Of a stretch of 64,000 nucleotides of DNA, positions 6,763-41,066 are shown one piece after another. Position numbers and translations under genes: made by a program. The stretch is from Verrucomicrobiia bacterium (GTDB taxonomy: Bacteria; Desulfobacterota; Binatia; UBA9968), in contig DATJFG010000033.1 of assembly GCA_035495775.1 (NCBI GenBank), forward strand, positions 64,122 to 128,121. The letters run 5' to 3'. Under the pieces are notes generated by a model. It was not told where the DNA came from. It was given only the letters and a program-made list of their open reading frames with translations, and searched no databases. Position 1 is the stretch's first letter. Each line of letters opens with the position of its first letter.

Positions 6763-7074
6763 ATGAGCAAATACGTGATGAACAAGTTCATCCATCAGGT
6801 GAACATGAGCGAGGCGTTAGAGAAGGAGTACAAGGCGAGCCCCGCCGACTTCGTCGAGAAATGGGAGCAAGACCAGATATTAAAACTCAGCGACGACGAG
6901 CGCGCGGCGCTCGCCGCCCGCGACTACGGCAGGCTCTACGCCCTCGGCGCGCACCCCTTCACCCTGTGGAGCTTCACCGAGGCGATCTGGGCGCACGAAG
7001 TGCCGCGCGAAGAATTAATTAAAGATTACAAGGAAAAGGCCGCGAAGACGGGATATCCGGATTTCAAGACATGA
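6763..7074 (+). CDS. LigA-like small subunit of aromatic ring-opening dioxygenase (PF07746-like)
   Basis: 103 aa. The LSDDERAALAARDYGRLYALG segment parallels LigA LTPAAKAAVLARDYNAMIDEG. Its stop overlaps the downstream start (ATGA). Confidence 0.55.
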   Translation: MSKYVMNKFIHQVNMSEALEKEYKASPADFVEKWEQDQILKLSDDERAALAARDYGRLYALGAHPFTLWSFTEAIWAHEVPREELIKDYKEKAAKTGYPDFKT

Positions 7075-19911: not shown

Positions 19912-21456
19912 TTAGCCGCCTCGTTGCAGAGCGTTCAAGAACTCAGCCGCGCTGGGGTACCTCAAAATCATCGCTGCAGTTTGCAGGCCCGATGCGACGA
20001 CTCCGTAAATACCTCCACCCGGCTGCGTCCAATGGCCCGAAAGATAGAGCCCTCGAATGGCGGTTCGATGTGCCAGCCTTTTCCGGCCCACCTGTTCGGG
20101 CGAGACTTCCCATCCGTAAATCGCCCCGGTCAGGTTCAGCGTGTATCGCTCCATCGTTCGTGGCGAGGCGCCCTCGGCGAAAGTGACGTGGTCCCGGAGG
20201 CCAGGAATCACCGCTTCGATCTCGTTCAGGAGCAATTCCGCATAACGGACTTTTTCCCGCCGCCACGACGCGCCGATTTCATAGGGGATGAGCGTCGTCG
20301 CGACGACCAGGTGTTCGCCCGCTGGAGCCAACGAAGGATCGACCAGCGTTGGAATCGTCACGACGATTCCCGACGGCCTTCCCTCGAGGATCTTTTGGTA
20401 GATTTCATCGTGATCCCAGCTCTTATACAAGAAGATCTCGTGCCCGGCGTCCACCCGCCGCACGTCGAGATCCGTCGCCAGATACGCGACGAAGGCGGAG
20501 AGCGAAGGCTTCATCCGTTCGAGGCTGCTTAAGAATCGCCGCGAGAGGTGCTCCGCGCCGATGAGTTCCTCGAACGTCTGCCGAGCGTCGGCGTTCGAGA
20601 TCACGACCGGCGACTCGATGCGCTGACCGTTTTCCAAGAGGACTCCCGCCGCGCACCGGTCCTTGACGAGGATCTGGCGGACCCGGCTGTTGAGCAGGAG
20701 TTCGCCGCCGCTCCGCTCCAGCGCGGAGACGAAGGCGTTGACCAGATTTTGAAAGCTTCCGCGGCAGTAAAAGGCGCCCTCCGCGACAAAGCTCATCAGC
20801 ATCACGGACCAGTAAACAAACGAGAGCCTGGATGGCGGCAGGCCGAGATAAGGCCATGCGGCCCCAAGCACCGCTTTCACCCGAGGATCCGTGAGGTGCT
20901 CCTCCATCACCGCGCCGAGAGTCGCTTTATGATATCGGAACAGCGCTGGGAAACGCCGCGGCATGCGGACGACATCCCAAAACGAAAGGTCGGTCGGGAA
21001 TCGACGAACTTCTTCGTTGATCTGGCTGCAAAGCTCAATGAGCCGACGCAGCCCTCTCTCTTCGCTTGGAAAACAGCGAATATGCGCTTGAAGGTAGTGT
21101 TCGATCTCCAGCGGGGCGTGAAGTTTGAAGCCGGGAAAAACGGCGGTGTAAAAGGGATCGACGCGAACGAAGGCGCAGCGGTCTCGAACGGAAAGCAAAC
21201 GGAGGAGGCCGTCGATCAGCCCTCCCACCTCGAAGCCCACGGGCTCACACCCACCGATCAGATGAACCGCTGCATCGAAATTATACTTTTTCCGCCGGAA
21301 AGCATGGGCATAGCCGCCGGGGCGGTCGTGACGCTCGACCACAAGGACCTTCTTTCCCGCGCGGCCCAACAGCGCGGCGGCCGACAGACCGCCCATCCCG
21401 CTCCCGACAACGACCGCATCATAGGTTTCCGCGCGAGATTCCTTGCGCACGTTCAT
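19912..21456 (-). CDS. phytoene desaturase-family (CrtI-like) FAD/NAD(P)-binding oxidoreductase
   Basis: N-terminal GXGXXG (DAVVVGSGMGGL) and an overall CrtI/amine-oxidase-like fold. Confidence 0.7.
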   Translation of the reverse strand: MNVRKESRAETYDAVVVGSGMGGLSAAALLGRAGKKVLVVERHDRPGGYAHAFRRKKYNFDAAVHLIGGCEPVGFEVGGLIDGLLRLLSVRDRCAFVRVDPFYTAVFPGFKLHAPLEIEHYLQAHIRCFPSEERGLRRLIELCSQINEEVRRFPTDLSFWDVVRMPRRFPALFRYHKATLGAVMEEHLTDPRVKAVLGAAWPYLGLPPSRLSFVYWSVMLMSFVAEGAFYCRGSFQNLVNAFVSALERSGGELLLNSRVRQILVKDRCAAGVLLENGQRIESPVVISNADARQTFEELIGAEHLSRRFLSSLERMKPSLSAFVAYLATDLDVRRVDAGHEIFLYKSWDHDEIYQKILEGRPSGIVVTIPTLVDPSLAPAGEHLVVATTLIPYEIGASWRREKVRYAELLLNEIEAVIPGLRDHVTFAEGASPRTMERYTLNLTGAIYGWEVSPEQVGRKRLAHRTAIRGLYLSGHWTQPGGGIYGVVASGLQTAAMILRYPSAAEFLNALQRGG

Positions 21457-21721
21457 GCTTCGAATCTCTGAGCGGCTCTCGCCCGGCACTCGCTGCTTTT
21501 TCGCTGATTTTTAGGAATATCTACTTTTTCACCGCTTTCTTCAGATAAAAATATTCGCATCGCTTTCCGCCGTCTGAGCCCTTCTGCGAAGCGTCGTCGT
21601 CCCGGATCGTGAGCTTCCGTCCGATGAAATATAGTTGGCATTTTTCACCCTCGCGCATTGGCTCGAAGATCTTATCCGACTTCTGCGTCGAGCCATAGAA
21701 GTGAGAGGGGCGGCGCGTTTA

Positions 21722-22903
21722 CTAGGTGAGCTCGACCGTCAGTGGATTGTAAGAGTAGAGCCACGCGTTCCGCGCCGCGCCTTCTTCGCGGCCGGCGAAC
21801 GCCCGCCGGAGCTTCTCCTGATCGCGCATATGAAACAGCGTGCGGTTCGCGCTCGACCCCGCGACGATGCGCGAGGTCCGCTCGATCCGATTGCGTTCGT
21901 ACAGACGAAGGGCGTCGGCGACGGAGTCGGTCGACTGTAGAGCGCGGGTCAGCACGGCGGCGTCCTCGATCGCCATCGCCGCGCCCTGCGCGAGATAGGG
22001 CAGTGTCGCGTGAACCGCATCCCCGAGCAAAGTCGCGCGGCGGGTGCTCCATTGCTGGATCGGCGGCCGGTAGAACAGCGACCAGCGGTAGCACGCGTCT
22101 TTGTCGGCCTTGTCGATGACGGCCTGGATGTCTTCGTGCCAGCCCGCGAAATCCGCCTTCAGCCGCTCCCAGGGAAATTTGGCGGTCCACGATTCCTCGG
22201 ACACCTCGTCGGTCTCGACAAGCCCGACGAAATTCAGCAAGGCGCCGCCTCGGAGATAGTAACAAACGACGTGCCGTCCTGGACCCATCCAGACCGACAT
22301 GACCCGGCCCATGAAGTCCTCGGGCATCCGGCTCGAGGGCAGCGTCAAACGCCACGCGGCGTCGCCGGTATAACTAGCCTGGTCCGCGCCCGCGATCTGA
22401 GCGCGCACGGCGGATTTGACACCGTCCGCGCCGATCAGGAGGTCGCCCGCGGCCTTGGAGCCGTCGGCGAAGAATACCTCAACGCCGCCCGCGCTTTCAT
22501 CGAAGCCAACGATGCGGCGGTTCAACCGTACGATTTCGCTGTCGAAGTCTCGCGCCTTCGCGGCGAGCAGATCGTGGAGGTCGCCCCGGTGAAGCTGGTT
22601 GTACGGTGCCCCGTTGAGCCTCTCGTGCTCCTCGGCGAGGGGAAACTGGCCGATGATCTCGCCCGTATCGTGCAAACGAAAAACATAAGCGGCGGGTCGG
22701 ACCGATAGTTTGCCTGCGGCTTCTCCGAGGCCGAGATGATTGAGAACATGCATCGCGTTGGCGCTGAGCTGTATGCCCGCGCCGATCTCGCTGAGCTTCG
22801 GCGCCTGCTCGTAGACCTCGACGTCGTACCCCGCCTTCATGAGGCACGAGGCCGCCGTGAGGCCGCCGATGCCGGCGCCGGCGATTAGAACCTTCTTGGC
22901 CAT
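21722..22903 (-). CDS. FAD-dependent aromatic-ring monooxygenase (salicylate / 3-hydroxybenzoate hydroxylase family)
   Basis: KVLIAGAGIGGL, DG..S motif and GDAAH fingerprint (LLGDAVHA). Confidence 0.8.
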   Translation of the reverse strand: MAKKVLIAGAGIGGLTAASCLMKAGYDVEVYEQAPKLSEIGAGIQLSANAMHVLNHLGLGEAAGKLSVRPAAYVFRLHDTGEIIGQFPLAEEHERLNGAPYNQLHRGDLHDLLAAKARDFDSEIVRLNRRIVGFDESAGGVEVFFADGSKAAGDLLIGADGVKSAVRAQIAGADQASYTGDAAWRLTLPSSRMPEDFMGRVMSVWMGPGRHVVCYYLRGGALLNFVGLVETDEVSEESWTAKFPWERLKADFAGWHEDIQAVIDKADKDACYRWSLFYRPPIQQWSTRRATLLGDAVHATLPYLAQGAAMAIEDAAVLTRALQSTDSVADALRLYERNRIERTSRIVAGSSANRTLFHMRDQEKLRRAFAGREEGAARNAWLYSYNPLTVELT

Positions 22904-22966
22904 GAAAACGAACGGGCCGCCGCCCCGCTAGCGACCCAGCGCGAAGGGAGTCGCGCTTGCGGCGGC

Positions 22967-24652
22967 TTACCGGCCGCCTTTCTTCGGATAAAAATATTCG
23001 TATGTCCCCTCTTCCACCTTCTTGAACACCGTCGAGACCGTCTTCCACGGGTCCTTGGCGAAATCTTCGTAGCGTCCCGGCGCGCTGACGCCGGGGATGT
23101 GCGGCACCCAGTCCTCGGACAATAAATCTTTCGGGTCGCCGTAGCGCGACGCGAGCGCGCGCGCCTCGGGGCTGTCGAGCGAGGTCATCCGCCCCTTGTC
23201 GATGATATTGACCCAGGTGTTCTTCGTGCCGCGCACGCGCAGGCGATACGTCGAGAAGTAGTTGTGCACGTGCCACCAGTGGTCGTTCGGCAGGTTGTTC
23301 TTGGTGGTGAAGTCGACCCATTCCTTCGCCCATTCAGCCGAGTCGGGGCTGTGGTGCACGCGGATGCCGTGGCCGTAGTGGAGCACGCCGCTGCGGTTCC
23401 GCTCGGTCACATTGTCGCCGCGCATGTTCTCGTCCGGCCGCTTGTAATATTTGGGGTTGGTCCCGAGCGCGACCTCGTAGAGCTGCCAGTATCCCGGCCG
23501 GTCGTGATAAGGATAGGTCACCTCGTTGATCTTGGGATATTTCAAAAACTCGCGCCACAGATCGCCGTAGACGCCGCCTCCTTTCACGTCGTCGATGTAG
23601 CCGTCTTTTAGATGGACCTCGACGCGAGGGTAATGGCCCGCGTGATTCGCGGTGCCGGCGATGACGCCGCTCACGCGCGGCGTCGGCGACCGCGGGTTCC
23701 ATTTTTTCTGAAACGCCGGATACTCGACGACCGAGTAGGGAAAGCGCCCGGTTGCCTGATTGGGGAACATGTAGAGGTGTCCCTGCTGGTAGACGCCGCG
23801 CGCCCAGCGCGACGCCATGTCTTCGGTCAAATCGGCCGAGAGATTCGTCCCCTCAGGGTCGGCGACCTCCAGACGGTCGGCCCAGGCGATCGGCTCGATC
23901 GCGCGCTCTTCGGTCAAGCGCCAGACGTCGCCGGGAAACGCCGAGATCTTGCTCATCATGGTCCAGCGGTTGTCGAAGACATTGACGCCGAGAAATTTAT
24001 CCTCGTGCGGCCGCATGTAGCGCCTGAGCGTCGTGGTGCCGCCGGTGCCCCAGAAGACGCCCTTCACCGAGGGATTTTTCTCCACATATTCCTTGATGCC
24101 TTTGGCGACGTTCTCCCGCTCCAGTTTCTTGAGCGTCGCGCGCGCCTTCTCCGAAATTTCCGCCCGCGGCGGATACAGCTGCTCGTAGAGATCGGGACGG
24201 CGCTCCTTGAGCCATTTCTTCGGCACCTCGGGATCGGGGAACATCTCCTCCATCCAGCGCCGCGCCTCCATGTAGCCCTGCTCGGCGGTCGTCTGGCGGC
24301 GCGCCTTGATCGCTTCGAGCGCGTCGGCGCGGGAGACGCCGGCGAGCTCGTAGCTCGGCAGCACGTGGAGCTTGACGCCGCGCTCCTCCATCGCGCGGCG
24401 GATCGCCTCGACGACCATATCCTCTGACGACGCCTCGGTCACGAGCGCGACCGACTCGCCGGACTTGAGGCTCCCCAGCCCTTCGCCCTGGAGACCCGTC
24501 GTCTGGCGCGCCACGGCGCGCGCGAACGGCATGATCTCGTCGATCGACTTCGGCGCTGTGAGATACGACGGAAAGCGCGGCTGGCTGTATTTGCCCTCCG
24601 CGGCTAGAGCGAGCGAAGCGAATAATGCGGCCAAGAGGATCAGGCGTTTCAT
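22967..24652 (-). CDS. secreted protein of unknown function, paralog 1 of a three-member family
   Basis: Signal peptide (MKRLILLAALFASLALA). Shares N-terminal PRFPSYL.PKSI.EIMPFARA and C-terminal DPWKTVS...YEYFYPKKGG with 28370..30070 and 30081..31781. Confidence 0.75.
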   Translation of the reverse strand: MKRLILLAALFASLALAAEGKYSQPRFPSYLTAPKSIDEIMPFARAVARQTTGLQGEGLGSLKSGESVALVTEASSEDMVVEAIRRAMEERGVKLHVLPSYELAGVSRADALEAIKARRQTTAEQGYMEARRWMEEMFPDPEVPKKWLKERRPDLYEQLYPPRAEISEKARATLKKLERENVAKGIKEYVEKNPSVKGVFWGTGGTTTLRRYMRPHEDKFLGVNVFDNRWTMMSKISAFPGDVWRLTEERAIEPIAWADRLEVADPEGTNLSADLTEDMASRWARGVYQQGHLYMFPNQATGRFPYSVVEYPAFQKKWNPRSPTPRVSGVIAGTANHAGHYPRVEVHLKDGYIDDVKGGGVYGDLWREFLKYPKINEVTYPYHDRPGYWQLYEVALGTNPKYYKRPDENMRGDNVTERNRSGVLHYGHGIRVHHSPDSAEWAKEWVDFTTKNNLPNDHWWHVHNYFSTYRLRVRGTKNTWVNIIDKGRMTSLDSPEARALASRYGDPKDLLSEDWVPHIPGVSAPGRYEDFAKDPWKTVSTVFKKVEEGTYEYFYPKKGGR

Positions 24653-24665
24653 CCGAGTCCCCCCT

Positions 24666-25367
24666 TCAAACGACGAATCTGCCGTCGCGCATATGATAGA
24701 CCTTTTTGAACTGCTCGACCGCCTTGGGGTCGTGGCTCGCCATGACGACGGTCTTGCCGTGGCGCTCGGCGAGCGAGAGAAAAAGCGCGGCGATCGAAGC
24801 CGTGTTCTCGCTGTCGAGGTTGCCGGTCGGCTCATCCGCTAAAATCAGCGCCGGGTCGTTGGCGAGCGCCAGTGCCACCGCGACGCGCTGCTGCTCGCCG
24901 CCGCTCAATTCTTCCGGCCGCTTGTGCATCTTTTCCGCCAGACCCACCATGCCGAGCAGCCCCTCGCAGCGGCGCGCGCGCTCGCCCGGCGTCGTGCCCG
25001 CGATCAGCATCGGCAGCTCGAGATTCTCGGCGGCGGTGAGCGTCGGGATCAGATTGAAGAATTGAAAGACGAAGCCGATCTTCAGCAGCCGATAGCGCTC
25101 GAGCTCGCGCTCGCCGAGCATGCCGATGGTGTCACCGCCGACGACGATCTCGCCCGCCGATGCGTGATCGACGCCGCCGAGAATATTCAGCAGCGTCGTC
25201 TTGCCGCAGCCCGACGGACCCATGAGGGCGATCGCCTCGCCCGCCGCGATCCGCCAGTCGATGCCCTTCAGCGCGCGGACCTCCTCCGCCGAGGTGCGGT
25301 AGCTCTTCGCAAGCCCCGCCACCTTGACGTCGACGCCGCGGTTGGTGAAAAAGCCGTTGCCTTCCAT
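24666..25367 (-). CDS. ABC transporter ATP-binding protein, MacB/LolD family
   Basis: Walker A GPSGCGKTT, LSGGEQQR signature, Walker B ILADEPTGNLD, H-loop. Confidence 0.9.
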   Translation of the reverse strand: MEGNGFFTNRGVDVKVAGLAKSYRTSAEEVRALKGIDWRIAAGEAIALMGPSGCGKTTLLNILGGVDHASAGEIVVGGDTIGMLGERELERYRLLKIGFVFQFFNLIPTLTAAENLELPMLIAGTTPGERARRCEGLLGMVGLAEKMHKRPEELSGGEQQRVAVALALANDPALILADEPTGNLDSENTASIAALFLSLAERHGKTVVMASHDPKAVEQFKKVYHMRDGRFVV

Positions 25368-25382
25368 GAGACCTCCGAAAGT

Positions 25383-28328
25383 CTATTCCAGCATCCGCTC
25401 GCGCGCCGAGCGGCGGAAAACCCACAGGCTGAAGAGCAGCGCGATGCCGCCGATCACGACGAAGATCCCCGCGCCGATCCCAATCGTCGCGCCGGAAATC
25501 ACGAGATGGGTCGGCAGCAGGTGCACGACCGATTTGATCTCTCGGAGATTCCAGATGAGATTCGTGAGCCCGAATCCGGCGACCGCTGCGATGGCGACGC
25601 CGATCAAGAGTCCGGCGAGCGCGGGCGCGAGCAGCATCGAGGCGAAAAACTTGAACAGGAGCTTGGGCGACGCGCCGCGCACGCGCAGAAGGCCGAGCGT
25701 GCGCCGGTCTTCGAGATAGTTCGTAAGCGCGATCGCGGCGATCGCGATCAGCGCGAGCAGCATGCCGCCCGCCAGATAGATGCGCATGTTTTCGAGCGCG
25801 AGGAAGATGAACATGTCGCCGCCGATCTTCTTGAGCTCGCGGCCGAGTTCGCGCACCTCCAGCGGGCGCGCGCGGAGCGCGGTCGTGATCGCCTTCACCG
25901 CGGCGTCCGACCCCTCTTCGCGCTTTAAACGCACGAGCAGCAGGACGCGCGGCACGAGCACTTTGAGATTAGCGATCTTCGCGTTGTCGGCGGTCGCGAC
26001 CAGATAGGCGTCGGTACTGGAGAGGTAATTCAAATAGTCAATGCGCGCCGAGACGAAGCTCTGCCGGTCGGCGATGCTGCGCGGCGGCATGCCGGGCAGA
26101 AAGCCGATTACGCCGCCGCCGGGAACGAGCACCGGCTTTTTGTCCATATCCGCGCCGAGCAGGACCGGATCGCCGGAGGCGAGGTTCCAGAACTCCGCCA
26201 CCGGCGGCGAGGCGGCGACCTTTTCTGTCTTCAAGTCGCGCACGATGGCGCTGAAGTTGCCGCCGACGCCCAGCTTCTCGTCGAAGAAGACGGTTTTGAG
26301 ATAGCGCTCTGGGTCGTCGATGAGATAGAGCGGCACGCCGCTTAGGCCGTAGCCGGGGAAAAAAAATCCCGGCAGGAGCGCCTCGATGATCGTATCGATC
26401 GAGACGATGTTGTCGTCGCGGACCGCGCCGAGACGCTCCTTGACCGCGGTCCTGATCGCCTGCGCCTGCGCGCCGAGTCCCTGATCGAGTTTTTCCGCCG
26501 GGACGAGATCGCCCGGGCCGAGGGCGATGTGAAGCTCGCTCCCGACCTCGACGGTGGCGCCGCGGAGCGCTTTGTCCTCGAAGGATTTCGCGCCGATGCT
26601 CGGATAGAGGCTGACGCTTGCCATGAGCGCGACGATGAGCAAAAAGCTCGCGATGCGGTGCGGCTTGAACGACATGTGGCGTAACGACAGGCGCCTGAGC
26701 GGCCCGCCGAGAATACGCGAAACCAAGTCGAGCAAAGCCGTCATCAAGCCCTGCCGCGAGACCAACAACGAGACCAGGCCGTAGACGATGAGCGGCAGCG
26801 CGACGAAATCGAGCGCGCGGTCGAGCACCAGGATCGTCCTGACGAAGATCGTCCACGACGCGGAGGCATCCTCGGCGAGCGCCATGTGGCGCGCCGGATC
26901 GAAGTCGACGGCCCAGCTCATTAGCTTGTAGAGCCCGACGAGCAGAGCGGCCATCTGGAGCGGGCCGAAGCGCATGCCGGCTTCGCTGGATTCCGAGGCG
27001 GCGACGCGGCGCGAGGCCTCGAGCGGCGAGATCGTCGTCGCGTAGCGCACCAGGCGCCGGCTCGACCACAGGGCGAAGAGAACTCCCACGACGAGAAAGA
27101 AAAGCATCTGCAGCGGCCCCTGGACGTGCGAGAGAACCGTCCAGGAGAGCGCGCCGCGCTCGTAGAGAACGAGCGGCAGCAGCGTGCCGAGGATAAGTCC
27201 GATGACGCCGCCGATCAGGCCGCCGGCGCCGATCGAGAGCATGAGGCTCTGCCCCAGCAGCGCGCCGGGCACGCCGCGAAGCCGCATGAGGCCGAGTTTG
27301 CGCCGCTCGTTCAGGATGAGCAGCGCGGAGAGATTGGACGCCAGCATCCAGGCGATCGCGAGCAGCGGGATCGCGATCAACAGCGTCGCGAAATAGAGCA
27401 GGCGCGAGATCTCCGCCATGCGGTTCAAGAGCACGAGGATCGCGTTGTCGACGAAGATCGTCGGCCCGAGCGAGCTCACCTGCGCCTCGATGTCTTTCTG
27501 GAGCTTTTGAAGATTGGCGAGCGAGCCGCGGATATCCCAGCCGGAGATCAATTTTTTCCGGTCGACGCGCGCGAGATGAATCACCTCCGGCAGATATTCG
27601 CCCGCGGTCGTGTGGATATCCCCCTGCCCGCCGAGCGCGCCGCGCGAGAGCGCGTCGAACCAGCGGAGCCGCTCGAAGTCGTGCGGCATCACGAGAACGA
27701 TGCCGATGTAGGGGACGAACGAGATCGTGCCGATCTCGTCCATGAAGTAGCGGTTGACCTCGGCGCGCTCCAGACGGACGACACCGTGGACCGGCAGGGC
27801 GAACAAGTCCTGCTCGCTTCGCTTGCCGCCGTGGCTGTGCACGGTTACGGAAAAATTCTTCGCCTGCTGGAGCGCGAGAAAGGCGTGGCCCATCTGCTGC
27901 TCCGGGCCGACGAGCGCGAGATGCGCGCCGCGGTCGCCCGCGCTCGGCCGCACCTCGGACGGCAGCAGCGAGAGATCGGTCGCCGCGAGGATCGACACCC
28001 AAGGCGAGGCGAGCGGCTTGCCGTCGACCGCGAGCGCCGCCTCGGGCGGCGGCTTGGAGCGGAGGAACGTCAGCGTCTCGACGCGCTGGATGCCCGCGAC
28101 GGCGGCGAGCCTCGGCGTGATCTCTTTCGAGAGCGGGAACTCGGTCGTCTGGTAGAGCGCCACGTCCCAGGAGAGGCGCGAGAGCTGATCTTCGATGTAG
28201 AGTTTGAGCGCGTGGCGCGACGCGACGTTGATCGCGGCGAGCAGCCCGGCGATCAGGAGCGTCACGATGCCGAAGGCGAGCGCCGCGCGGCGCCCGAGGA
28301 TCTTTGCGAGACGAAGCTTGATGCTCAT
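25383..28328 (-). CDS. dual FtsX-domain ABC permease (MacB/YbbP-like, type VII mechanotransmission family)
   Basis: 981 aa with two repeats of (TM, large periplasmic domain, three-TM FtsX domain with RLRGV / LRVRGAS motifs). Confidence 0.8.
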   Translation of the reverse strand: MSIKLRLAKILGRRAALAFGIVTLLIAGLLAAINVASRHALKLYIEDQLSRLSWDVALYQTTEFPLSKEITPRLAAVAGIQRVETLTFLRSKPPPEAALAVDGKPLASPWVSILAATDLSLLPSEVRPSAGDRGAHLALVGPEQQMGHAFLALQQAKNFSVTVHSHGGKRSEQDLFALPVHGVVRLERAEVNRYFMDEIGTISFVPYIGIVLVMPHDFERLRWFDALSRGALGGQGDIHTTAGEYLPEVIHLARVDRKKLISGWDIRGSLANLQKLQKDIEAQVSSLGPTIFVDNAILVLLNRMAEISRLLYFATLLIAIPLLAIAWMLASNLSALLILNERRKLGLMRLRGVPGALLGQSLMLSIGAGGLIGGVIGLILGTLLPLVLYERGALSWTVLSHVQGPLQMLFFLVVGVLFALWSSRRLVRYATTISPLEASRRVAASESSEAGMRFGPLQMAALLVGLYKLMSWAVDFDPARHMALAEDASASWTIFVRTILVLDRALDFVALPLIVYGLVSLLVSRQGLMTALLDLVSRILGGPLRRLSLRHMSFKPHRIASFLLIVALMASVSLYPSIGAKSFEDKALRGATVEVGSELHIALGPGDLVPAEKLDQGLGAQAQAIRTAVKERLGAVRDDNIVSIDTIIEALLPGFFFPGYGLSGVPLYLIDDPERYLKTVFFDEKLGVGGNFSAIVRDLKTEKVAASPPVAEFWNLASGDPVLLGADMDKKPVLVPGGGVIGFLPGMPPRSIADRQSFVSARIDYLNYLSSTDAYLVATADNAKIANLKVLVPRVLLLVRLKREEGSDAAVKAITTALRARPLEVRELGRELKKIGGDMFIFLALENMRIYLAGGMLLALIAIAAIALTNYLEDRRTLGLLRVRGASPKLLFKFFASMLLAPALAGLLIGVAIAAVAGFGLTNLIWNLREIKSVVHLLPTHLVISGATIGIGAGIFVVIGGIALLFSLWVFRRSARERMLE

Positions 28329-28369
28329 GCGTCGGGCTGGAGGAAATTTTCTATCGAATCGACTCGCGC

Positions 28370-30070
28370 CTAACGCTTATCGCCGCCGCCTTTTTTCGGA
28401 TAAAAATATTCGTAGCTGCCGTCTTCGATTTTTTTCATCACCATGGAGACGGTCTTCCACGGGTCCTTGGCGTAGTCCTCGTAGCGGCCCGGCGCGTTGA
28501 TGCCCGGGAGATACGGCGCCCAATCGTCACTGAGGACTTCGTTCGGATCGCCGTATCTGGATGCCAGCGCGCGGATCTCCGGCGATTTGAGCGAGGTGAG
28601 CTCACCTTTGTCGATGAGCGTTACCCAGGTACTTTTCGTCCCGCGGATTTTGACCTGATAGGTAGGCAGCGTGTTGTGAATGTGCCACCAGTGGTCGTTC
28701 GGTAGGTTGTTCTGCTTCGCGAAATCCATCCACTCCTTGGATTCCACCGGGCCCTGCGGACCGTGGTCTAATCTCAGGCCGAAGCCCCAGTGGATCGTCC
28801 CCGCGTTGTTGCGCTCGGAGCTGTTCTCCCCTTCCATGTTTTCGTCGGGGCGCTTGAAGAATTTCGGATTGGTGCCCGTGCCCGCCTCGTAGATCCACCA
28901 GTAGCCGGGCTGATCGTAATAAGGATATTTCAGCTCGTTGATCTTGGGATATTTGAGAAACTCGCGCCACGCTTCGCCGTAAAGCCCGCCGCCTTTCACC
29001 TCGCTCACGTAGCCGTCCTTGACGTGAACCTCGATGCGCGGATAGTTGCCGGCGTGATTGCCGGTGCCGGCGAAAACGCCGTTCACTTTCACGAGGGAAG
29101 GATACAGGTATTCCTTCGTGAACGCCGGATAATCGACCGCGGAATAGGGAAAGCGGCCCATCGCCTGATGCGGGAACATGAAGAGATGTCCCTGCTGGTA
29201 GGCGCCCTTCGCCCACGCGAGCGCCTGCTTCTCGTCGATTTCGAAATTGAAGTTCGTCCCTTCGGGATCGCTCACGCGCACCTGGTCGATCCAGCGGAGC
29301 GGCTCGATGACCCGCTCTTCCACCAGCCGCCACACGTCGCCCGGGAAGGTCGAGGCCTTGTTCATCAGCTCGTAGCGGTTATCGAAGATGAAGTTGCCGT
29401 ACAATTTATTGTGGTACGGCTCGATCTGCCTGCGCGTGTTGGTGCGGCCGCCGCGGCGCCAGAAAACCATGTCGACTTCTTTGTGCTGATCGAGATACTT
29501 GACGATCGCCTGCGCGACGTTCCGGCCGCCGAACTTCCGCGCCAGATCGACCTGCTCTTGCGACATCGCCTCTTCTTTCTCGAACATCGCCTTGTAGAGA
29601 TCGGGCCGCTTCTCCTTGAGCCATTTCTTCGGCACCGAAGGATCGGAGAACGCGTTCAAGATCCAGCGGTGCGCCTCCATATAGCCCTGCTCGGAGGTGA
29701 ACCAGCGGAGCGCCTTCACCGCCTTCAGCGCCTCGTCTTTGCTGACGCCGAGAAGCTGGTATTCGGGCACGATCTGGATTTTCACGCCGCGCTCTTCGTA
29801 CGCGCGCTTGATCGCCTGCAAGACCATCTCGTCGGCCTTGGGCTCGGTGAAAATCGCGACGGTCTGACCTTTTTCCGCCAGACCGAGCGGCGTCCGTCCG
29901 CCGGTCTGCCTGACCGCGGCGCGCGCGAATGGCATGATGTCCTCGATCGATTTCGGCGGCTTTAAATACGACGGGAAGCGCGGCGCCGGATACTTCGCCT
30001 GCTCCGCGCTCCAGACATATCCGAACGCCGCGCATGCGACGAAGATCGCAGAGATGATCCAGCGCTTCAT
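28370..30070 (-). CDS. secreted protein of unknown function, paralog 2
   Basis: Signal peptide (MKRWIISAIFVACAAFG). Roughly 65-70% identical to paralog 3 over the N-terminal 150 aa. Confidence 0.75.
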   Translation of the reverse strand: MKRWIISAIFVACAAFGYVWSAEQAKYPAPRFPSYLKPPKSIEDIMPFARAAVRQTGGRTPLGLAEKGQTVAIFTEPKADEMVLQAIKRAYEERGVKIQIVPEYQLLGVSKDEALKAVKALRWFTSEQGYMEAHRWILNAFSDPSVPKKWLKEKRPDLYKAMFEKEEAMSQEQVDLARKFGGRNVAQAIVKYLDQHKEVDMVFWRRGGRTNTRRQIEPYHNKLYGNFIFDNRYELMNKASTFPGDVWRLVEERVIEPLRWIDQVRVSDPEGTNFNFEIDEKQALAWAKGAYQQGHLFMFPHQAMGRFPYSAVDYPAFTKEYLYPSLVKVNGVFAGTGNHAGNYPRIEVHVKDGYVSEVKGGGLYGEAWREFLKYPKINELKYPYYDQPGYWWIYEAGTGTNPKFFKRPDENMEGENSSERNNAGTIHWGFGLRLDHGPQGPVESKEWMDFAKQNNLPNDHWWHIHNTLPTYQVKIRGTKSTWVTLIDKGELTSLKSPEIRALASRYGDPNEVLSDDWAPYLPGINAPGRYEDYAKDPWKTVSMVMKKIEDGSYEYFYPKKGGGDKR

Positions 30071-30080
30071 GTGAACCTCT

Positions 30081-31781
30081 TTACTGCCGCACCTTTTTGA
30101 TCGGCGGGTAGAAATATTCGTAGCTGCCGTCCTCGATCTTCTTAATGACCGTCGAGACGGTCTTCCACGGGTCCTTGGCGTAATCCTCGTAGCGTCCCGG
30201 CGCGTTGATTCCCGGCAGATACGGCGACCAGTCCTCCGCCAGCACTTCGTTGGGATCGCCGTAGCGCGAGGCGAGCGCGCGGATCTCGGGACTCTTGTAC
30301 GCCGGCATCTCGCCCTTATCGATGATCGTGAGCCAGGTGTTCTTCGTGCCACGGACGTGCATGCGATAGGTGAGCAGCGTGTTGTGGACATGCCACCAGT
30401 GGTCCTTCGGCAGCCCATGCTCTTTGGGGAAATCGATCCAAGCCTTCGACTCCTCCGGCTTGTCGGGATCGTGGATCACACTGCCGCCGAAGCCCCAATG
30501 GATCACGCCGGCGTTGTTGCGCTCGGACTGGTTGTTTCCCTCCATGTTTTCGTCCGGCCGTTTGAAGAATTTCGGGTTCGTGCCGAGCCCGGCTTCGTAG
30601 AACCACCAGTAGCCGGGGCGGTCCTGATAGGGATATTTAAGGTCGTTGATGCCGGGATATTTCATGAACTCGCGCCACAGCTCGCCGTAGGTGCCGCCGC
30701 CTTTCACGTCGGTGACGTAACCGTCCTTTACGGTGACTTCGATGCGCGGATAGCTGCCGGCGTGATTGCTGGTGCCGGCGAAGACGCCGTTGACGCGGCT
30801 GATGATCGGCGCGTTCCACTTTTTCTGGATCGCCGGGTAATCGACGACGGAAAACGGAAAGCGGCCGGTCGCCTGATAAGGCGAGAGAAAGAGATGGCCC
30901 TGGTTATAGGCGCCGGAGGCCCAGATCTTCGCCTCCTCTTCGGTCACCTCGAAGTTCATGTGTGTGCCCTCGGGGTCGAAGGCCTCGACGCGATCGGTCC
31001 AGGGAATCGCCTCCAGCACGCGCTCCTCCGCGAGGCGCCAGACGTCGCCGGGAAAGCCCGAGGCCTTGTTCATCAGCTCGTAGCGGTTGTCGAAGATGAA
31101 GTTGCCGTAGAACTTCGCGCTGTGCTGCTTCAACAGCCGCGCCGTGCGCGGCCGGCCGCCGCGGCGCCAGAAGACCGACTTCACGTCCGGATGCTCGTCG
31201 AGGAATTTGATGATGCCGGCGGCGACGTTCGGTCCGCCGAACTGCTTCGCGATCTCGCGCTGCTTCTGCGGCGCCTGCTCGGTCGTGGCGTAGATTGCGT
31301 TGTAGAGATCGGGCCGGCGCTCCTTGAGCCATTTCTTCGGCACTTCGGGATCGATAAAAAGGTCGTTGATCCAGTGCGCGGCTTCCATGTAGCCCTTCTC
31401 GGACGTGTAGCCGCGAGTCGCCTTGATCGCCTTCAGAGCCTCGTCGCGGCCGATGCCAAGCAGCTCGTGCTCGCCGATGATGTAAATCTTGACGCCGCGC
31501 TCCTCGAAGGCGCGCTTGATCGCTTGCATGATCATCGGGTCGGCGCCCGCCTCCGTGACGATCAGCGTCGCCGTGCCTTTTTCCACCAGGCCCAGCGGCG
31601 TGCGGCCGCCGGTCTGGCGCACGGCGGCGCGCGCGAACGGCATGACGTCCTCGATCGATTTCGGCGGCTTTAGATAGGAGGGAAAGCGCGGCGGCGGGTA
31701 GTTGCCTTTCTCGGCGGCGTCGGCGAGAAAGATCGCCGTCGCGAAAACGGCGGCGCTGATCGCAATCAGATAATGTCGCAT
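30081..31781 (-). CDS. secreted protein of unknown function, paralog 3
   Basis: Signal peptide (MRHYLIAISAAVFATAIFLADA). Same family motifs as paralogs 1 and 2. Stop is 10 bp before the paralog 2 start. Confidence 0.75.
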   Translation of the reverse strand: MRHYLIAISAAVFATAIFLADAAEKGNYPPPRFPSYLKPPKSIEDVMPFARAAVRQTGGRTPLGLVEKGTATLIVTEAGADPMIMQAIKRAFEERGVKIYIIGEHELLGIGRDEALKAIKATRGYTSEKGYMEAAHWINDLFIDPEVPKKWLKERRPDLYNAIYATTEQAPQKQREIAKQFGGPNVAAGIIKFLDEHPDVKSVFWRRGGRPRTARLLKQHSAKFYGNFIFDNRYELMNKASGFPGDVWRLAEERVLEAIPWTDRVEAFDPEGTHMNFEVTEEEAKIWASGAYNQGHLFLSPYQATGRFPFSVVDYPAIQKKWNAPIISRVNGVFAGTSNHAGSYPRIEVTVKDGYVTDVKGGGTYGELWREFMKYPGINDLKYPYQDRPGYWWFYEAGLGTNPKFFKRPDENMEGNNQSERNNAGVIHWGFGGSVIHDPDKPEESKAWIDFPKEHGLPKDHWWHVHNTLLTYRMHVRGTKNTWLTIIDKGEMPAYKSPEIRALASRYGDPNEVLAEDWSPYLPGINAPGRYEDYAKDPWKTVSTVIKKIEDGSYEYFYPPIKKVRQ

Positions 31782-31840
31782 GGCGCTAAACCATAGAAAG
31801 TTTAGCGCGGGGTTGTCAAGGAAGAAGGGTCGAGGCACGC

Positions 31841-32830
31841 TCAGCGCGGGTAGAGCTGCTTGATGAAACCTTCCTTGGCGAGTTGCTCGATGGGTCCCGT
31901 GTCGTAAAACGCGCGCTGATCGGCGGTCTTCGCGCGCGGATTGCGCGCCGCGATATCCTCGAAGGCGTTCTCGATCTCACTCGCGCTGACCGTCGGCACG
32001 TCGCGGATGTAGCCCAGGACATAGGTGCGAAAGGCGCTTTCGAGCAGCTTCTTATCGTCGGTGCGCGTATATTTCGCGAGAATTTTCACCGTAAACTCGG
32101 GATTGGCCTTGGCGTATTTGATCCCTTCGAGCGTCGCCTTGAGAAAGCGGTTGAGCGTCGCCGCGCGGTTCTTGATGAAGGCGTCGGTCGCCACCAGCGC
32201 CGTGCCGGGGTAGCGGTAGTTGATGTTGGCGAGATTCACCATCTCCTTATAGCCCAGCTCCTTCGCCTTCTCTAGCGTGGGCGAGGAGATGAGACCGCCT
32301 TTGATCACCCCCTGCTGCATGAACATGAGGTTCTCCGGCACGCCGCCGGTCTGAATCATCTTGATATCCTTGTTCGGGTCGAGGCCCCATTCGCTCACCG
32401 CCTTGCGGAGCCCTAGGTCGGTCAGCGAGCCGAAGCGGCTGACGCCGAAGGTCTTGCCTTTGAGGTCCTCCGGCTTGGTGATATCAGGCGTCGTCACGAG
32501 GCTCATCGGAATAACGTTGATCACGCTGCCGATGATCTTGACCTCCGAGCCGGCCAACCGAGCCAGGATTGCGGCAGCTCCGGAACCCTGGGCGATTTGA
32601 GTATCCCCGGAAACCAGGGTGGTGATCGCCTGGGAGCCGGCGATGTAGATCAGGTTCACGTCCAGGCCGTACTTTTTATAGATCCCCGCATCTTTGGGTA
32701 CCCAGCTCGAGACCGACGCGCCGGCGATCGTGGAGTAAACGATGTTCAGCCTCTCGAGCTCGGCGGCGGCCGCAGGCGAAGGGGAAAGCAGGGCGACCGC
32801 TAGTAAAAAAACCGTTGAAAAGTTAAGCAT
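31841..32830 (-). CDS. periplasmic substrate-binding protein, NMT1/SsuA/TauA family (first gene of the six-gene cluster)
   Basis: Signal peptide and NMT1-like two-lobe sequence. No TauC/SsuC-type permease follows. Confidence 0.7.
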   Translation of the reverse strand: MLNFSTVFLLAVALLSPSPAAAAELERLNIVYSTIAGASVSSWVPKDAGIYKKYGLDVNLIYIAGSQAITTLVSGDTQIAQGSGAAAILARLAGSEVKIIGSVINVIPMSLVTTPDITKPEDLKGKTFGVSRFGSLTDLGLRKAVSEWGLDPNKDIKMIQTGGVPENLMFMQQGVIKGGLISSPTLEKAKELGYKEMVNLANINYRYPGTALVATDAFIKNRAATLNRFLKATLEGIKYAKANPEFTVKILAKYTRTDDKKLLESAFRTYVLGYIRDVPTVSASEIENAFEDIAARNPRAKTADQRAFYDTGPIEQLAKEGFIKQLYPR

Positions 32831-32839
32831 CTGCAGGCA

Positions 32840-32869
32840 ATCTACGGCTTGCTGTTACGACTTGTCAAG
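32840..32869 (-). promoter_or_regulatory. candidate sigma-70 promoter of the six-gene cluster
   Basis: Minus-strand TTGACA-18 nt-TAGATT ends about 8 nt before the ATG, which would imply a leaderless or very short-leader transcript. Weak. Confidence 0.25.
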
Positions 32870-32921
32870 CGGCTGGTTGATTGTTTCGGCGGACTCTTGT
32901 ACCCTGGCGAGGTTGTCAGCC

Positions 32922-34334
32922 ATGCGGGTATCAGTAGCCATAGCGCTTGTCGCGCTCCCGCCCTGGTTCGCCACTGCCTGCGGCACGGCGCCTTATGTAC
33001 AGACCGGTTCTCAGCCGGGCGCGGCCGCGGAAAACCGGGTGGTCAGCACGCCTCCTGCGGCGGCGCCGGCGGAAACCTTGACCCCGCCTACCGATCCGAC
33101 CCCTTCCGCGCGCGTCCCGAGCGACATCATCACAACTCCGCCGGCCGCTGAAGTGAAACCCGTCGCAGCGGAAGCCGTCAAACCCGAGGAGCCGTCCGCC
33201 ACAGTCCTGCAGGAGATCGCCGGACCCAAGGCGGACGACAGGCTTGTCGGCCTGCTCCAAAAAGAGATCGAAGAAGCGATGCAGCTGCCGTCCGGACGGC
33301 GCAAGATTCAGTTCTCCATGACGCTCGTCGAGAACGAGCGGGTGCGTTACTTTATCGATGCGTTCTGCGGCAAGCTGCGGGATTTTTTCGTCCAGGCGCT
33401 GGCGCGCTCGGGTAAATACATCCCGATGATGGCCTCCATCCTACAGCAGGCCGGCCTGCCGCAGGACCTCGTCTACCTGTCGCTGATCGAGAGCGGCTTC
33501 GCGCCTTCGGCCTATTCCAAGGCGAAGGCGGTCGGTCCATGGCAGTTCATCCGCTCGACCGGCGTGCGCTACGGCCTCAGGATCGACAACTGGGTCGACG
33601 AGCGGCGCGACCCGGTGAAATCGACGCGTGCGGCTGCCGCCTATTTAAAGGATCTGCATCAGCAGTTCGGCGAATGGTTCCTTGCCGCCGCCGCCTACAA
33701 CGCCGGGGAGCACCGGGTCGAATACGCTATGCAACGGACCAACACCAGCGACTTCTGGGATTTGAGCGAGCGGCGGACGATCCTAAAACAGGAGACGCGT
33801 AATTACGTCCCGAAGTTCGTCGCCGCGGCACTGATCGCCGGCGCTCCGGAGAAATACGGCTTCGCCGATCTCGTCTACGAAGCCCCGATGGATTACGACG
33901 AGGTGGTCACTCACCGCCCGCTGACGCTTACGATGATCGCGCGCCTGGCGCAGACAACGGCCGCCAATGTCAAGGAGCTGAATCCGGCGCTGCTTAAAAG
34001 CGTCACGCCGGCAAGCGAGCAGGGTTTCACCGTGCGTGTTCCGTCCGGCAGCGGCGAGATTTTTAACCAAGCTTATAAAAGCCAGTACGATTCGCCGAAC
34101 ATCAAAGTCATCAGCTATACGGTGAAAAAGGGCGAGAGCCTGGCGATGATCGCCCGGCGCTATCACGTCCGCGCAAGTCAGATTATCGAGACCAACGAGC
34201 TCAAGACGGCGCAAGTCCGGGCCGGGCAGCAGTTGACGATTGTCCAGGACGGATCGGCGCCCGTCGAGGCGGCGAAAGAGCCCAAAGCGGCGCCGCGGCC
34301 CCAGGCAACTCAGAAAAAAACCAAATCCAGATAA
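32922..34334 (+). CDS. membrane-bound lytic murein transglycosylase D-like (SLT domain + LysM)
   Basis: Signal/lipoprotein-like N-terminus, Pro/Ala-rich linker, SLT catalytic region (LSLIESGF, AAYNAGE) and a C-terminal LysM. Confidence 0.75.
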   Translation: MRVSVAIALVALPPWFATACGTAPYVQTGSQPGAAAENRVVSTPPAAAPAETLTPPTDPTPSARVPSDIITTPPAAEVKPVAAEAVKPEEPSATVLQEIAGPKADDRLVGLLQKEIEEAMQLPSGRRKIQFSMTLVENERVRYFIDAFCGKLRDFFVQALARSGKYIPMMASILQQAGLPQDLVYLSLIESGFAPSAYSKAKAVGPWQFIRSTGVRYGLRIDNWVDERRDPVKSTRAAAAYLKDLHQQFGEWFLAAAAYNAGEHRVEYAMQRTNTSDFWDLSERRTILKQETRNYVPKFVAAALIAGAPEKYGFADLVYEAPMDYDEVVTHRPLTLTMIARLAQTTAANVKELNPALLKSVTPASEQGFTVRVPSGSGEIFNQAYKSQYDSPNIKVISYTVKKGESLAMIARRYHVRASQIIETNELKTAQVRAGQQLTIVQDGSAPVEAAKEPKAAPRPQATQKKTKSR

Positions 34335-34350
34335 GGCGGAAAAGCGGCGC

Positions 34351-35643
34351 TTATTGACGCTGTGAAAGCGGCACGTAGCCGCGCTTCTCGGCGCCTTTAT
34401 AAATCTGCCGCGGGCGGGCGATCCTGTTCTTCTGCTCGGGGTCGAGCAGCATCTCCTGCCAATGCGCGATCCAGCCGATCGTGCGCGCGATCGCGAACAG
34501 CACCGAGAACATATCGATCGGCAGACCCATCGACTGGTAGATGAGACCCGAGTAAAAGTCGACGTTCGGATAGAGCTTCCGCTTGATGAAGTACTCGTCT
34601 TCGAGCGCGATCTTTTCCAGCTCGAGCGCGATATCGAGCAGCGGGTTGCGCCCCTTCACATCGAAGACCTCGTAGGCGACCCGCTTGATGATCTTGGCCC
34701 GCGGGTCGTAATTCTTGTAAACGCGGTGGCCGAAGCCCATCAACCGGCCTTCGCCGGATTTCACTCGTTTGATAAACGCCGGGACGTTGTCCTTGTGCCC
34801 GACCTCGCTCAGCATGCGGAGCACCATCTCGTTGGCGCCGCCGTGGAGCGGTCCGTAAAGCGCCGCAGCGGCCGCCGCCACCGAGCAGTATGGATCCGAA
34901 TGGGCGCTGCCCACGCCGCGCATCACGTTCGTGCTAATATTCTGCTCGTGATCGGCATGCAGAATAAATAAAATGTCGAGCGCCCGCTCCAGCACCGGAT
35001 GCGGCTGGTACTTGAGCTCCGTCATCTTGAACAGCATGTTCAAGAAATTGCCGGCATAGCTTAAATCGTTGTCGGGATAGGCGTACGGCATACCGATGCT
35101 GTGGCGGTAGGCGAAGCCGGCGATGGTGGGCATTTTTGCAACCAGTCGATAGGTCTGCTTTTGCCGCGACTCGGCGTTGTAGATGTCTTTCGCTTCGCTG
35201 TAAAAGGTCGACAGCGCCGCGACCGTGCTCACCAGCATGCTCATCGGATGCGCGTCGTGGTGAAAGCCGTCGATGAACTTTTTGATATTCTCGTGCAGGA
35301 TCGAATGATGCGTGATGTTATAGTTCCACTCGTCGAGCTGGGATTTGTTCGGCAGCTCGCCGTTTAAAACGAGATAGGCGGTTTCGAGATAAGTGCTTTT
35401 CTCCGCCAGCTCTTCAATCGGATAGCCGCGGTAGCGCAGGATCCCGGCGTCGCCGTCGATATAGGTGATCCGGCTGGTGCACGCAGCCGTGTTCATGAAG
35501 CCGGGGTCGAAGCTGCCGAGGCCGAAATCGTCCTCGCCGGTCTTGATCTGGCGCAGATCGGTCGCGTTGATCATCCCGTCATGGATGGGAATGTCATACT
35601 TTTTGCCCGTTCGGTTATCGATGACCGTGATCGTATCCGGCAT
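34351..35643 (-). CDS. gltA: citrate synthase
   Basis: 430 aa with the citrate synthase signature GFGHRVYK and catalytic His/Asp context. Confidence 0.95.
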   Translation of the reverse strand: MPDTITVIDNRTGKKYDIPIHDGMINATDLRQIKTGEDDFGLGSFDPGFMNTAACTSRITYIDGDAGILRYRGYPIEELAEKSTYLETAYLVLNGELPNKSQLDEWNYNITHHSILHENIKKFIDGFHHDAHPMSMLVSTVAALSTFYSEAKDIYNAESRQKQTYRLVAKMPTIAGFAYRHSIGMPYAYPDNDLSYAGNFLNMLFKMTELKYQPHPVLERALDILFILHADHEQNISTNVMRGVGSAHSDPYCSVAAAAAALYGPLHGGANEMVLRMLSEVGHKDNVPAFIKRVKSGEGRLMGFGHRVYKNYDPRAKIIKRVAYEVFDVKGRNPLLDIALELEKIALEDEYFIKRKLYPNVDFYSGLIYQSMGLPIDMFSVLFAIARTIGWIAHWQEMLLDPEQKNRIARPRQIYKGAEKRGYVPLSQRQ

Positions 35644-35719
35644 AAACTGCCCCCGTTGACCGCCGCGTTAAGACCGTGTCTATCTTCTTATGATATCCTT
35701 CACCGCCGGTCAACTGCGC

Positions 35720-36178
35720 CTATAGCTCTTCCGGGCTAAGACTCCATGCAAATTTCCAGCAATTCGCGCTCCAGGTGAGGCAAACGACCGTCGCCGTCGT
35801 GAACTCGATCGTCTGCCGTTGGCTATCGCCGGTGAGCAGCAGCGACGCGAGCCGGGCCAAGTGGGGCAAGTGGCCGACGAGCATGACCGGGGCCTCGGCG
35901 GCCTCCAGTTCCGCCCGGGCGATCTCCGGATCGTCCTCCGGCGCGAGCCCGGCGATCTCGCGTACGGTACACTTCGGCGCAGCGACGCGCGCGAAGATCT
36001 CGGCGGTCTCTCGCGCGCGCAATTTATCGGAATGAAGAATCGCCGCGACCTCGATATCCTGCGCCGCCGCGGCGCGCGCGACCGTCTCGACATCGTCGCG
36101 GCCGCGCGAACTGAGCGGCCGGCGCGCGTCCTCGGATTCATGCTCCGCCTCCCCGTGCCTGACAAGAAAGAATTCCAT
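35720..36178 (-). CDS. sixA: phosphohistidine phosphatase SixA (histidine phosphatase superfamily)
   Basis: N-terminal RHG motif (LVRHGEA) and ~150-aa length. Confidence 0.75.
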   Translation of the reverse strand: MEFFLVRHGEAEHESEDARRPLSSRGRDDVETVARAAAAQDIEVAAILHSDKLRARETAEIFARVAAPKCTVREIAGLAPEDDPEIARAELEAAEAPVMLVGHLPHLARLASLLLTGDSQRQTIEFTTATVVCLTWSANCWKFAWSLSPEEL

Positions 36179-36283
36179 AGAAGGATTCTGCCGCCGTTTT
36201 TAGTCGAGGAAAGCGGCTAGACTCGCTCTCAACGATGCTATAGTATCCCGACGGCTCTTTCCAATGGAGCGGGCAACCGAGCA

Positions 36284-37012: not shown

Positions 37013-37021
37013 GGAGGTGCC

Positions 37022-38619: not shown

Positions 38620-38621
38620 CG

Positions 38622-39296: not shown

Positions 39297-39311
39297 ATAT
39301 TCGCCGGCGTC

Positions 39312-40956: not shown

Positions 40957-41066
40957 GCGCACAAGACTGGAAGTCAAGATAGAGGCCGGGTGGAGGCCTG
41001 TCAATGCAAATTGGCCGTTTGCGCGCGCGCCGGGAAGTGCTAGCATCGGGCCGAACAGGAGGACCT

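Follow-up and report, generated by a model that had tools for sequence, protein, structure and literature searches.

Here we describe a gene cluster from a Binatia soil bacterium, located within a 64,000-nucleotide window to which all positions below refer, in which a fused double-FtsX permease and its ATP-binding cassette (ABC) ATPase are encoded alongside three paralogous secreted proteins that are probably metalloenzymes. The genes are read from the minus strand in the order NMT1-type solute-binding protein (SBP), paralog 3, paralog 2, double-FtsX permease, ABC ATPase and paralog 1. Bidirectional synteny over three phyla shows that the core of this cluster, as defined by gene order, consists of the enzyme gene or genes, the permease and the ATPase. 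With confidence slightly better than even, we favour a true functional partnership in which the gene products form a type VII ABC complex whose partner is a periplasmic enzyme.

Conserved pairing of enzyme and ABC genes

The pairing was assessed from both sides. An enzyme-anchored survey covered 35 GTDB loci together with contig look-ups. For a permease-anchored survey, 80 metagenome loci were fetched and counted only if they had at least 5 kb of upstream flank; a hit was a same-strand family member lying no more than 5 kb upstream, and loci with a permease 44–49% identical to that of the window were classed as distant. An enzyme gene was present at 17/17 close and 10/10 distant loci (27/27 in total), and the pairing was found again in two more permease look-ups on contigs longer than 100 kb. 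A preliminary description of this DNA had treated the paralogs and the ABC module as parts of one system; synteny elsewhere, at every locus counted, shows them to be a conserved unit. In the enzyme-anchored survey, the arrangement enzyme(s)–permease–ATPase was recovered in Binatia, in a metagenome-assembled genome (MAG) labelled 'Acidiferrales' (L004/L016), in a Chloroflexota MAG (L034) and in a Vicinamibacterales MAG (L045). The L045 permease (1,009 amino acids (aa)) shares 45% identity with that of the window along its whole length, the L045 ATPase is 62% identical to its counterpart, and the genes run from a TonB-dependent receptor and a lipoprotein family member through two NHL/SGL propellers to the FtsX permease and the ATPase.

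The ABC-linked enzymes carry Sec leaders in Binatia and lipoboxes in Chloroflexota and in the distant branch, the clusters of which have recurrent neighbours of the TonB-dependent receptor/NHL or UbiD/Amidohydro_3 type. Copy number ranges from 1 to 5 enzymes per ABC-linked locus. Orthologs of paralog 1 keep their position after the ATPase in L006, L008, L009, L054 and others. A fourth paralog, 68% identical to paralog 2, is present in the closest relative, L009 (8230–9906), as well as in L001, L018, L053 and L092; it lies between the equivalents of paralogs 3 and 2, where the window has a gap of 10 bp, a difference that implies the recent loss or gain of one copy, as judged from these gene maps. 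Leaderless relatives of the enzymes (P0398, P0396, P0392, P0255 and P0274) behave differently: none adjoins FtsX, two adjoin a complete NMT1 importer with a GntR/FCD regulator and one adjoins NicX (L048).

Several of these loci have further features of their own. An Acidobacteriota-type architecture, in which a SusC-like TonB-dependent receptor (CarboxypepD_reg, Plug and barrel) comes first, is seen at L045:115-11139 and L109:2521-14035, and the receptor suggests an outer-membrane uptake step feeding the system there. The Chloroflexota locus (L034:465-10449; DATGVV010000203.1) encodes two lipoprotein paralogs, a permease, an ATPase and a second full-length double-FtsX permease (43–48% identical to that of the window), which gives two permeases per single ATPase gene. 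At L042:10001-15005 and L046:1797-6780, a leaderless relative is followed by an NMT1 SBP, BPD_transp_1, ABC_tran and a second BPD_transp_1 gene; with GntR/FCD, UbiD, TPP enzyme, DHO_dh, M20, OCD/mu-crystallin and SDR genes as neighbours, this region looks like a small-molecule catabolic island.

The permease and its ATPase

The permease matches the Pfam FtsX family (PF02687) with an E-value of 4.7e-7 and 30.3 bits, against a cut-off of 25.5, over residues 852–973, that is, in the C-terminal unit only; an N-terminal FtsX unit is predicted from the topology. Hydropathy analysis gives approximately ten hydrophobic segments in a 4+2+4 arrangement and two extracytoplasmic domains of about 270 aa each, at residues 34–309 and 581–849 (275 and 270 aa). 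Their placement is right for a type VII permease, in which a large extracytoplasmic domain of MacB-like (Porter/Sabre) fold lies between TM1 and TM2. The AlphaFold2 model of the protein has a pLDDT of 48, which is too poor for domain-level comparison with YbbP. When this poor model was searched with Foldseek, LolE, Spr0695, MacB, BceB and HrtB ranked first at TM-scores of only 0.1–0.3, and a MacB-type fold was the top structural match of its N-terminal half. Across phyla, conservation of the periplasmic domains (40–46%) comes close to that of the transmembrane regions (46–57%). No match to the permease was found in NCBIfam or among PDB sequences.

The ATPase matches Pfam ABC_tran at 5.9e-32. 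Its best NCBIfam matches are LolD (1.1e-63), MacB (4.8e-57), FtsE (9.5e-56) and YbbA (1.7e-54), all under the equivalog cut-offs, and it is 41% identical to E. coli YbbA. Its translation shows intact Walker A, signature, Walker B and H-loop motifs. The FtsX match, the ten-segment topology and the MacB/LolD/YbbA-like ATPase agree with the dual-FtsX ABC module of MacB/YbbP type that had been recognized in the preliminary description.

A secreted branch of the NicX/M29 superfamily

The three paralogs are 57–69% identical over their full length (69% for 3 versus 2, 58% for 3 versus 1 and 57–58% for 1 versus 2 and 3). Each starts with an N-terminal hydrophobic Sec leader that has an AxA-like site just ahead of a conserved 'AE..KYPxPRFPSY' motif. 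Paralog 2 also has in its leader the string 'FVAC', which is marginally lipobox-like; paralogs 1 and 3 lack it, orthologs have not kept it, and it probably does not mark a lipoprotein. The paralogs have no match in Pfam (E ≤ 10), in NCBIfam or among PDB sequences (phmmer and profile hmmsearch), and distant relatives at 27–38% identity likewise lack a Pfam match. By contrast with these sequence searches, which returned nothing, an AlphaFold model of the paralogs matched NicX and M29 aminopeptidases, and only these. When the superfamily profile was aligned by hhalign with a PF26233 (NicX) protein, which adjoins a distant family member in L048, the probability was 99.5% with an E-value of 3e-23 over 321 columns. 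Faint precomputed PF26233 matches occur on some family members, and hmmscan gave no PF26233 match to the paralogs even at E ≤ 10. A missing family match combined with a strong alignment to one family member denotes superfamily homology and not family membership: within the NicX/M29 superfamily, the paralogs make up a long branch of secreted proteins, distinguished by a helical insertion of about 100 aa (around residues 115–200) and a C-terminal extension. An exhaustive profile search returned 674 cluster representatives at E ≤ 1e-3, which makes this an uncharacterized family of at least 674 clusters at 50% identity with no Pfam model of its own.

Among 35 sequences compared, down to 27% identity, the best-conserved polar residues (numbered as in paralog 2) are D268, H295, H339, E395, E419/R420, H427, H460, H463 and H465, which are present in 26–34 of the 35; the superfamily-conserved residues do not vary among the three window paralogs. 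The hhalign alignment places H427 opposite the His, and H463-x-H465 opposite the H-x-D, of the NicX-family protein. The Fe(II) ligands of NicX are His265, Ser302, His318 and Asp320 (PMC7910607). By position, and if the P. putida numbering can be transferred, H427 would correspond to Ser302 and H463/H465 to His318/Asp320, with the carboxylate replaced by His. This conserved His-rich set suggests that the paralogs are metalloenzymes, an assignment that we regard as probable and with which a hydrolase and an oxygenase are alike compatible. The earlier view of the paralogs as an uncharacterized secreted family of generic 'effectors' therefore needs revision in part: they are secreted and no curated family covers them, but they are not fold orphans, and the NicX/M29 fold together with the His-rich putative metal site refines 'effectors' to probable enzymes.

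Organization of the locus

The six genes occupy 22967–32830, and the intergenic gaps are 59, 10, 41, 15 and 13 bp according to the open reading frame (ORF) calls (Table 1). Their direction, their order and the 10–60 bp spacing had been correctly described beforehand, and Pfam profile searches agree with the identities then given to the NMT1 SBP, the ABC ATPase, the FtsX permease and the SLT/LysM neighbour. The best matches, at 92–95% identity, are from Candidatus Binatia MAGs.

Table 1 Coordinates of the cluster genes and of candidate control elements in the window
Feature	Position	Strand	Details
NMT1/SsuA-type periplasmic SBP	31841-32830	-	329 aa, signal peptide; Pfam NMT1; first gene of the cluster
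Paralog 3, secreted NicX/M29-fold putative metalloenzyme	30081-31781	-	566 aa; start MRHYLIA
Paralog 2, secreted NicX/M29-fold putative metalloenzyme	28370-30070	-	566 aa; directly upstream of the permease
Fused double-FtsX permease, putative type VII, YbbP-like topology	25383-28328	-	981 aa; Pfam FtsX and hydropathy
MacB/LolD/YbbA-type ABC ATPase	24666-25367	-	233 aa; ABC_tran
Paralog 1, secreted NicX/M29-fold putative metalloenzyme	22967-24652	-	561 aa; downstream of the ATPase
Divergent intergenic region between SBP and SLT/LysM gene	32831-32921	.	91 bp; probable promoter region
Terminator-like GC-rich hairpin with T-rich tail	22913-22938	-	Immediately 3' of paralog 1; consensus match only

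The cluster is a candidate operon. A sigma-70-like site on the minus strand (32868–32839) has 10/12 matches, which is not above chance expectation for the region. The hairpin (22938–22913) has a 9-bp stem with 6 GC pairs and the tail TTCGTTTTCA; such sites are no commoner here than in shuffled sequence. Because neither scan exceeds the shuffled expectation, the operon boundaries should be read as predicted. An Rfam scan of 21000–36000 found no riboswitch that would name a ligand, and the 64-kb window contains no tRNAs. Divergently upstream of the cluster lies the SLT plus LysM gene (Pfam), which encodes a lipoprotein; its probable true start is Met61 of the ORF, at base 32922, one base past 32921, the end given beforehand for the cluster region.

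Neighbouring genes

The SBP matches Pfam NMT1 (PF09084) at 8.9e-24 and NMT1_2 at 2.5e-13, and SsuA_fam at 1.3e-17, the last under the cut-off. No BPD_transp_1 (TauC-type) permease is encoded inside the cluster, as had been noted from the outset. An SBP ortholog (83–87% identity) occupies the same position only in the closest relatives (L001, L009, L018, L025, L053 and L092). More divergent NMT1 SBPs occur within 8 kb at 13/27 close loci and at 0/12 distant loci, and SBPs from importer contexts share only about 25% identity with that of the cluster. The window itself holds three NMT1 SBPs in 64 kb; the other two, on the plus strand at 7071–8099 and 41004–42071, are 28% and 32% identical to that of the cluster. 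Given this density, the frequency of SBP adjacency is near background. The SBP was therefore ruled out as a core component, from the high background and the 13/27 versus 0/12 distribution, and we treat it as an optional accessory that is weakly linked to the system: its presence as the first gene stands, whereas its earlier inclusion in the system is only weakly borne out. Orphan SBP genes are seen elsewhere too. The SBP gene at 41004–42071 has no adjacent transporter permease, its neighbours being a HAD hydrolase and a 185-aa ORF, and runs of 3–5 orphan NMT1 or SBP_bac_1 genes occur in L014, L072 and L097 (Binatia).

The SLT/LysM gene belongs to a synteny block beside the cluster, the other members of which, at 34351–39300 in the window, are genes for citrate synthase, for a phosphatase (His_Phos_1) and for an ABC importer of polar amino acids; the importer comprises an ATPase (36284–37012), SBP_bac_3 (37022–37903) and BPD_transp_1 (37900–38619). 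The block is conserved next to the cluster across Binatia at 75–91% identity, and the SLT/LysM gene and citrate synthase are absent from the L004/L016, L034, L045, L109 and L129 contexts. The MltD-like gene was accordingly rejected as a core component, its synteny being that of the Binatia lineage only, and the cell-wall link that had been drawn through it is not sustained, as the gene travels with the cluster only inside Binatia.

On the other side of the cluster, 63 bp past paralog 1, is a leaderless FAD_binding_3 monooxygenase of the salicylate-hydroxylase/NicC/HspB type (21722–22903, minus strand), followed by a leaderless Amino_oxidase-family flavoprotein (19912–21489, minus strand). A flavoprotein pair next to a NicX-fold enzyme recalls the gene sets of pyridine and nicotine degradation, although the compartments differ; the adjacency is common to the window and its closest relative, L009, only. 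Repeated or occasional neighbours at other loci are UbiD decarboxylases, Amidohydro_3, NHL/SGL propellers, TonB-dependent receptors and LigB.

Proposed mechanism and alternatives

Type VII ABC systems are mechanotransmitting ABC proteins paired with a periplasmic partner (PMC12646458). In E. coli, YbbAP–TesA is such a system, in which a ten-transmembrane double-FtsX ABC transporter has a docked periplasmic hydrolase (PMC12646458). Read most economically, the cluster would follow the same design with another permease lineage and another enzyme family. The fused double-FtsX permease and the ATPase would act as a mechanotransducer of the type VII (MacB/FtsX) superfamily, with a variable array of secreted NicX/M29-branch metalloenzymes as its extracytoplasmic partners. 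ATP hydrolysis in the cytoplasm would drive movement of both conserved periplasmic domains. This movement may raise a substrate partitioned into the membrane from the outer leaflet to the docked enzyme, as proposed for YbbAP–TesA, the most plausible substrate being a (hetero)aromatic or amide compound of hydrophobic character; the movement may instead switch the enzyme on allosterically, as in FtsEX–EnvC. Given that loci carry between 1 and 5 copies, the several paralogs would most likely be isoenzymes of differing specificity, all served by one motor. An obligatory hetero-oligomer of the three paralogs is disfavoured by the same range and by the fourth copy in L009. The SBP may capture a soluble substrate or product, and the MltD-like gene would be a mere neighbour. 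The preliminary description had imagined a periplasmic effector-activation or extraction machine; the conserved pairing fits that part of it, as a type VII motor with periplasmic partners, and not its cell-wall link. A more specific version, in which a YbbP-like motor is physically docked to the NicX/M29 enzyme array, draws (hetero)aromatic or amide substrates out of the membrane for ring cleavage or hydrolysis beyond the cytoplasm, or else mechanically gates a periplasmic enzyme that is inactive without it, and is widespread in uncultured soil Binatia, Acidobacteriota and Chloroflexota, is a tentative proposal that we rate below an even chance.

Several observations weigh against this interpretation. 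The type VII assignment of the permease comes from a weak Pfam match, the topology and Foldseek matches of low TM-score, and the window permease has no detectable similarity to E. coli YbbP (BLASTP E-value of 0.22), a result on which YbbP orthology was rejected. L044 encodes a secreted distant relative with neither an FtsX nor an ABC neighbour, so that the pairing is not superfamily-wide. Physical contact between enzyme and permease is a prediction from synteny. Finally, the lean of the neighbouring genes towards (hetero)aromatic or amide catabolism is anecdotal.

The alternative that survives best, unlikely as we consider it, is that the two parts serve the same pathway without forming a complex: the enzymes would act on a periplasmic compound, and the ABC proteins would be an independent efflux or detoxification pump for a hydrophobic substrate or a toxic product. 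The resemblance of the ATPase to MacB, DevA and the ATPases of bacteriocin and darobactin exporters is consistent with such a pump, and the TonB-dependent receptor, NHL/SGL propellers and amidohydrolase of the distant branch look like a catabolic uptake locus. However, none of the annotated loci showed a MacA/HlyD-type adaptor or a TolC-type duct, and both the conservation of the periplasmic domains and the fixed enzyme gene beside the permease argue for a specific partner.

It is more doubtful still that the ABC module is dedicated to the biogenesis or trafficking of the enzymes, whether by a Lol-like release of their membrane-anchored precursors or by supplying them with a metal or cofactor, for which NosDFY acting on NosZ is the comparison case. 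The enzymes of Chloroflexota and the distant branch are lipoproteins, LolE tops the Foldseek list for the permease (from the poor model) and the putative His-rich site would have to be metallated outside the cytoplasm. In Binatia, however, the enzymes have signal-peptidase-I-type leaders and no conserved Cys, so that lipoprotein extraction cannot be the conserved function, and no LolA-like chaperone and no NosD or NosL analogue was seen in the clusters.

Two further explanations have little to recommend them. A cell-wall machine, in which an FtsEX-like activator would control M29-fold peptidoglycan peptidases together with the MltD-like lytic transglycosylase, could draw on the FtsEX precedent, on M29 being an aminopeptidase fold and on the SLT plus LysM gene as divergent neighbour in the window and at many Binatia loci, but is very improbable given that this gene co-occurs only with citrate synthase and the amino-acid importer as a Binatia block, that the permease is a fused ten-transmembrane protein and not a four-transmembrane FtsX, that no coiled-coil/LytM adaptor is present and that the leaderless relatives sit in small-molecule catabolic contexts. 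SBP-dependent uptake, with the NMT1 SBP and possibly the paralogs feeding a solute to the FtsX-type ABC module as an unconventional importer, would account for an SBP as first gene without a TauC-type permease in the cluster and for the complete NMT1 importers beside leaderless relatives, yet deserves scarcely any credence when import is not known for any type VII ABC system (PMC12646458), most loci (12/12 distant ones among them) lack the SBP, three NMT1 SBPs in the window make chance adjacency an expected and frequent event, and the SBPs of importer contexts are as divergent as noted above.

Comparison with known systems

It is the periplasmic partner (EnvC, LolA, MacA–TolC and, only since 2025, TesA) that defines a type VII ABC system. 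A search of the accessible literature on Binatia FtsX proteins and on type VII ABC partners found no description of the enzyme–ABC pairing, in line with the earlier remark that the cluster was not recognizable as a described system. Conventional NMT1/SsuA/TauA importers differ in that the SBP of the cluster has no BPD_transp_1 gene with it; complete importers occur only beside leaderless relatives. LolCDE and MacAB–TolC share with the cluster the MacB-type fold match of the N-terminal half of the permease and an ATPase that scores best against LolD, but the cluster encodes neither distinct LolC and LolE subunits nor a LolA, MacA or TolC partner. FtsEX, with its partners EnvC, PcsB and RipC, has in common an FtsX-family membrane component, the ATPase family and the concept of ATP-controlled extracytoplasmic hydrolysis. 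FtsX, however, is a four-transmembrane homodimer whose small periplasmic domain binds coiled-coil adaptors, whereas the permease here is a fused ten-transmembrane protein, the partners have no coiled coils and there is no conserved link to peptidoglycan.

On the enzyme side, the paralogs share the two-domain NicX/M29 fold with the NicX/Hpo 2,5-dihydroxypyridine 5,6-dioxygenase (PF26233; PDB 7CN3), but they are about 200 aa longer, secreted and not cytoplasmic, and not part of a nic cluster; their H-x-H replaces H-x-D, and H295, H339 and H460 are extra conserved His residues. Compared with the M29 aminopeptidases AmpS, AmpT and PepS, the similarity is one of fold only, with no Pfam Peptidase_M29 match, and the paralogs have a His-rich in place of a carboxylate-rich site, are secreted and are ABC-linked. 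As the fold is otherwise known only from cytoplasmic aminopeptidases and a pyridine-ring dioxygenase, the secreted branch would be its first extracytoplasmic one.

The closest parallel is YbbAP–TesA. Both systems have a fused ten-transmembrane permease with two large periplasmic domains (between TM1 and TM2 and between TM7 and TM8, when the hydropathy profile and the helix map of the model are set beside the published YbbP topology), a MacB-type ATPase with the identity to YbbA given above, and a secreted enzyme gene beside the ABC genes; both lack a MacA adaptor and a TolC duct. They differ in that the window permease is 180 aa longer, that the partner is a NicX/M29-fold putative metalloenzyme and not an SGNH esterase (neither the window cluster nor any related locus examined encodes an SGNH hydrolase), and that 1–5 co-directional partner paralogs take the place of one divergent gene, in what is here a putative complex.

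The concept of the pairing is thus not categorically new, since YbbAP–TesA provides a precedent for a type VII ABC system with a periplasmic enzyme. The locus is a second, independent case of a double-FtsX ABC module paired with secreted enzymes. If the coupling is physical, an ABC motor that feeds or activates an extracytoplasmic enzyme would be a general design that extends beyond E. coli, and the partnership would offer the first functional handle on a conserved multi-copy gene set of Binatia, an abundant soil lineage that has, to our knowledge, no cultured members. Set against YbbAP–TesA, what is new here is the unrelated fold of the partner, its array of multiple paralogs and a distinct permease lineage.

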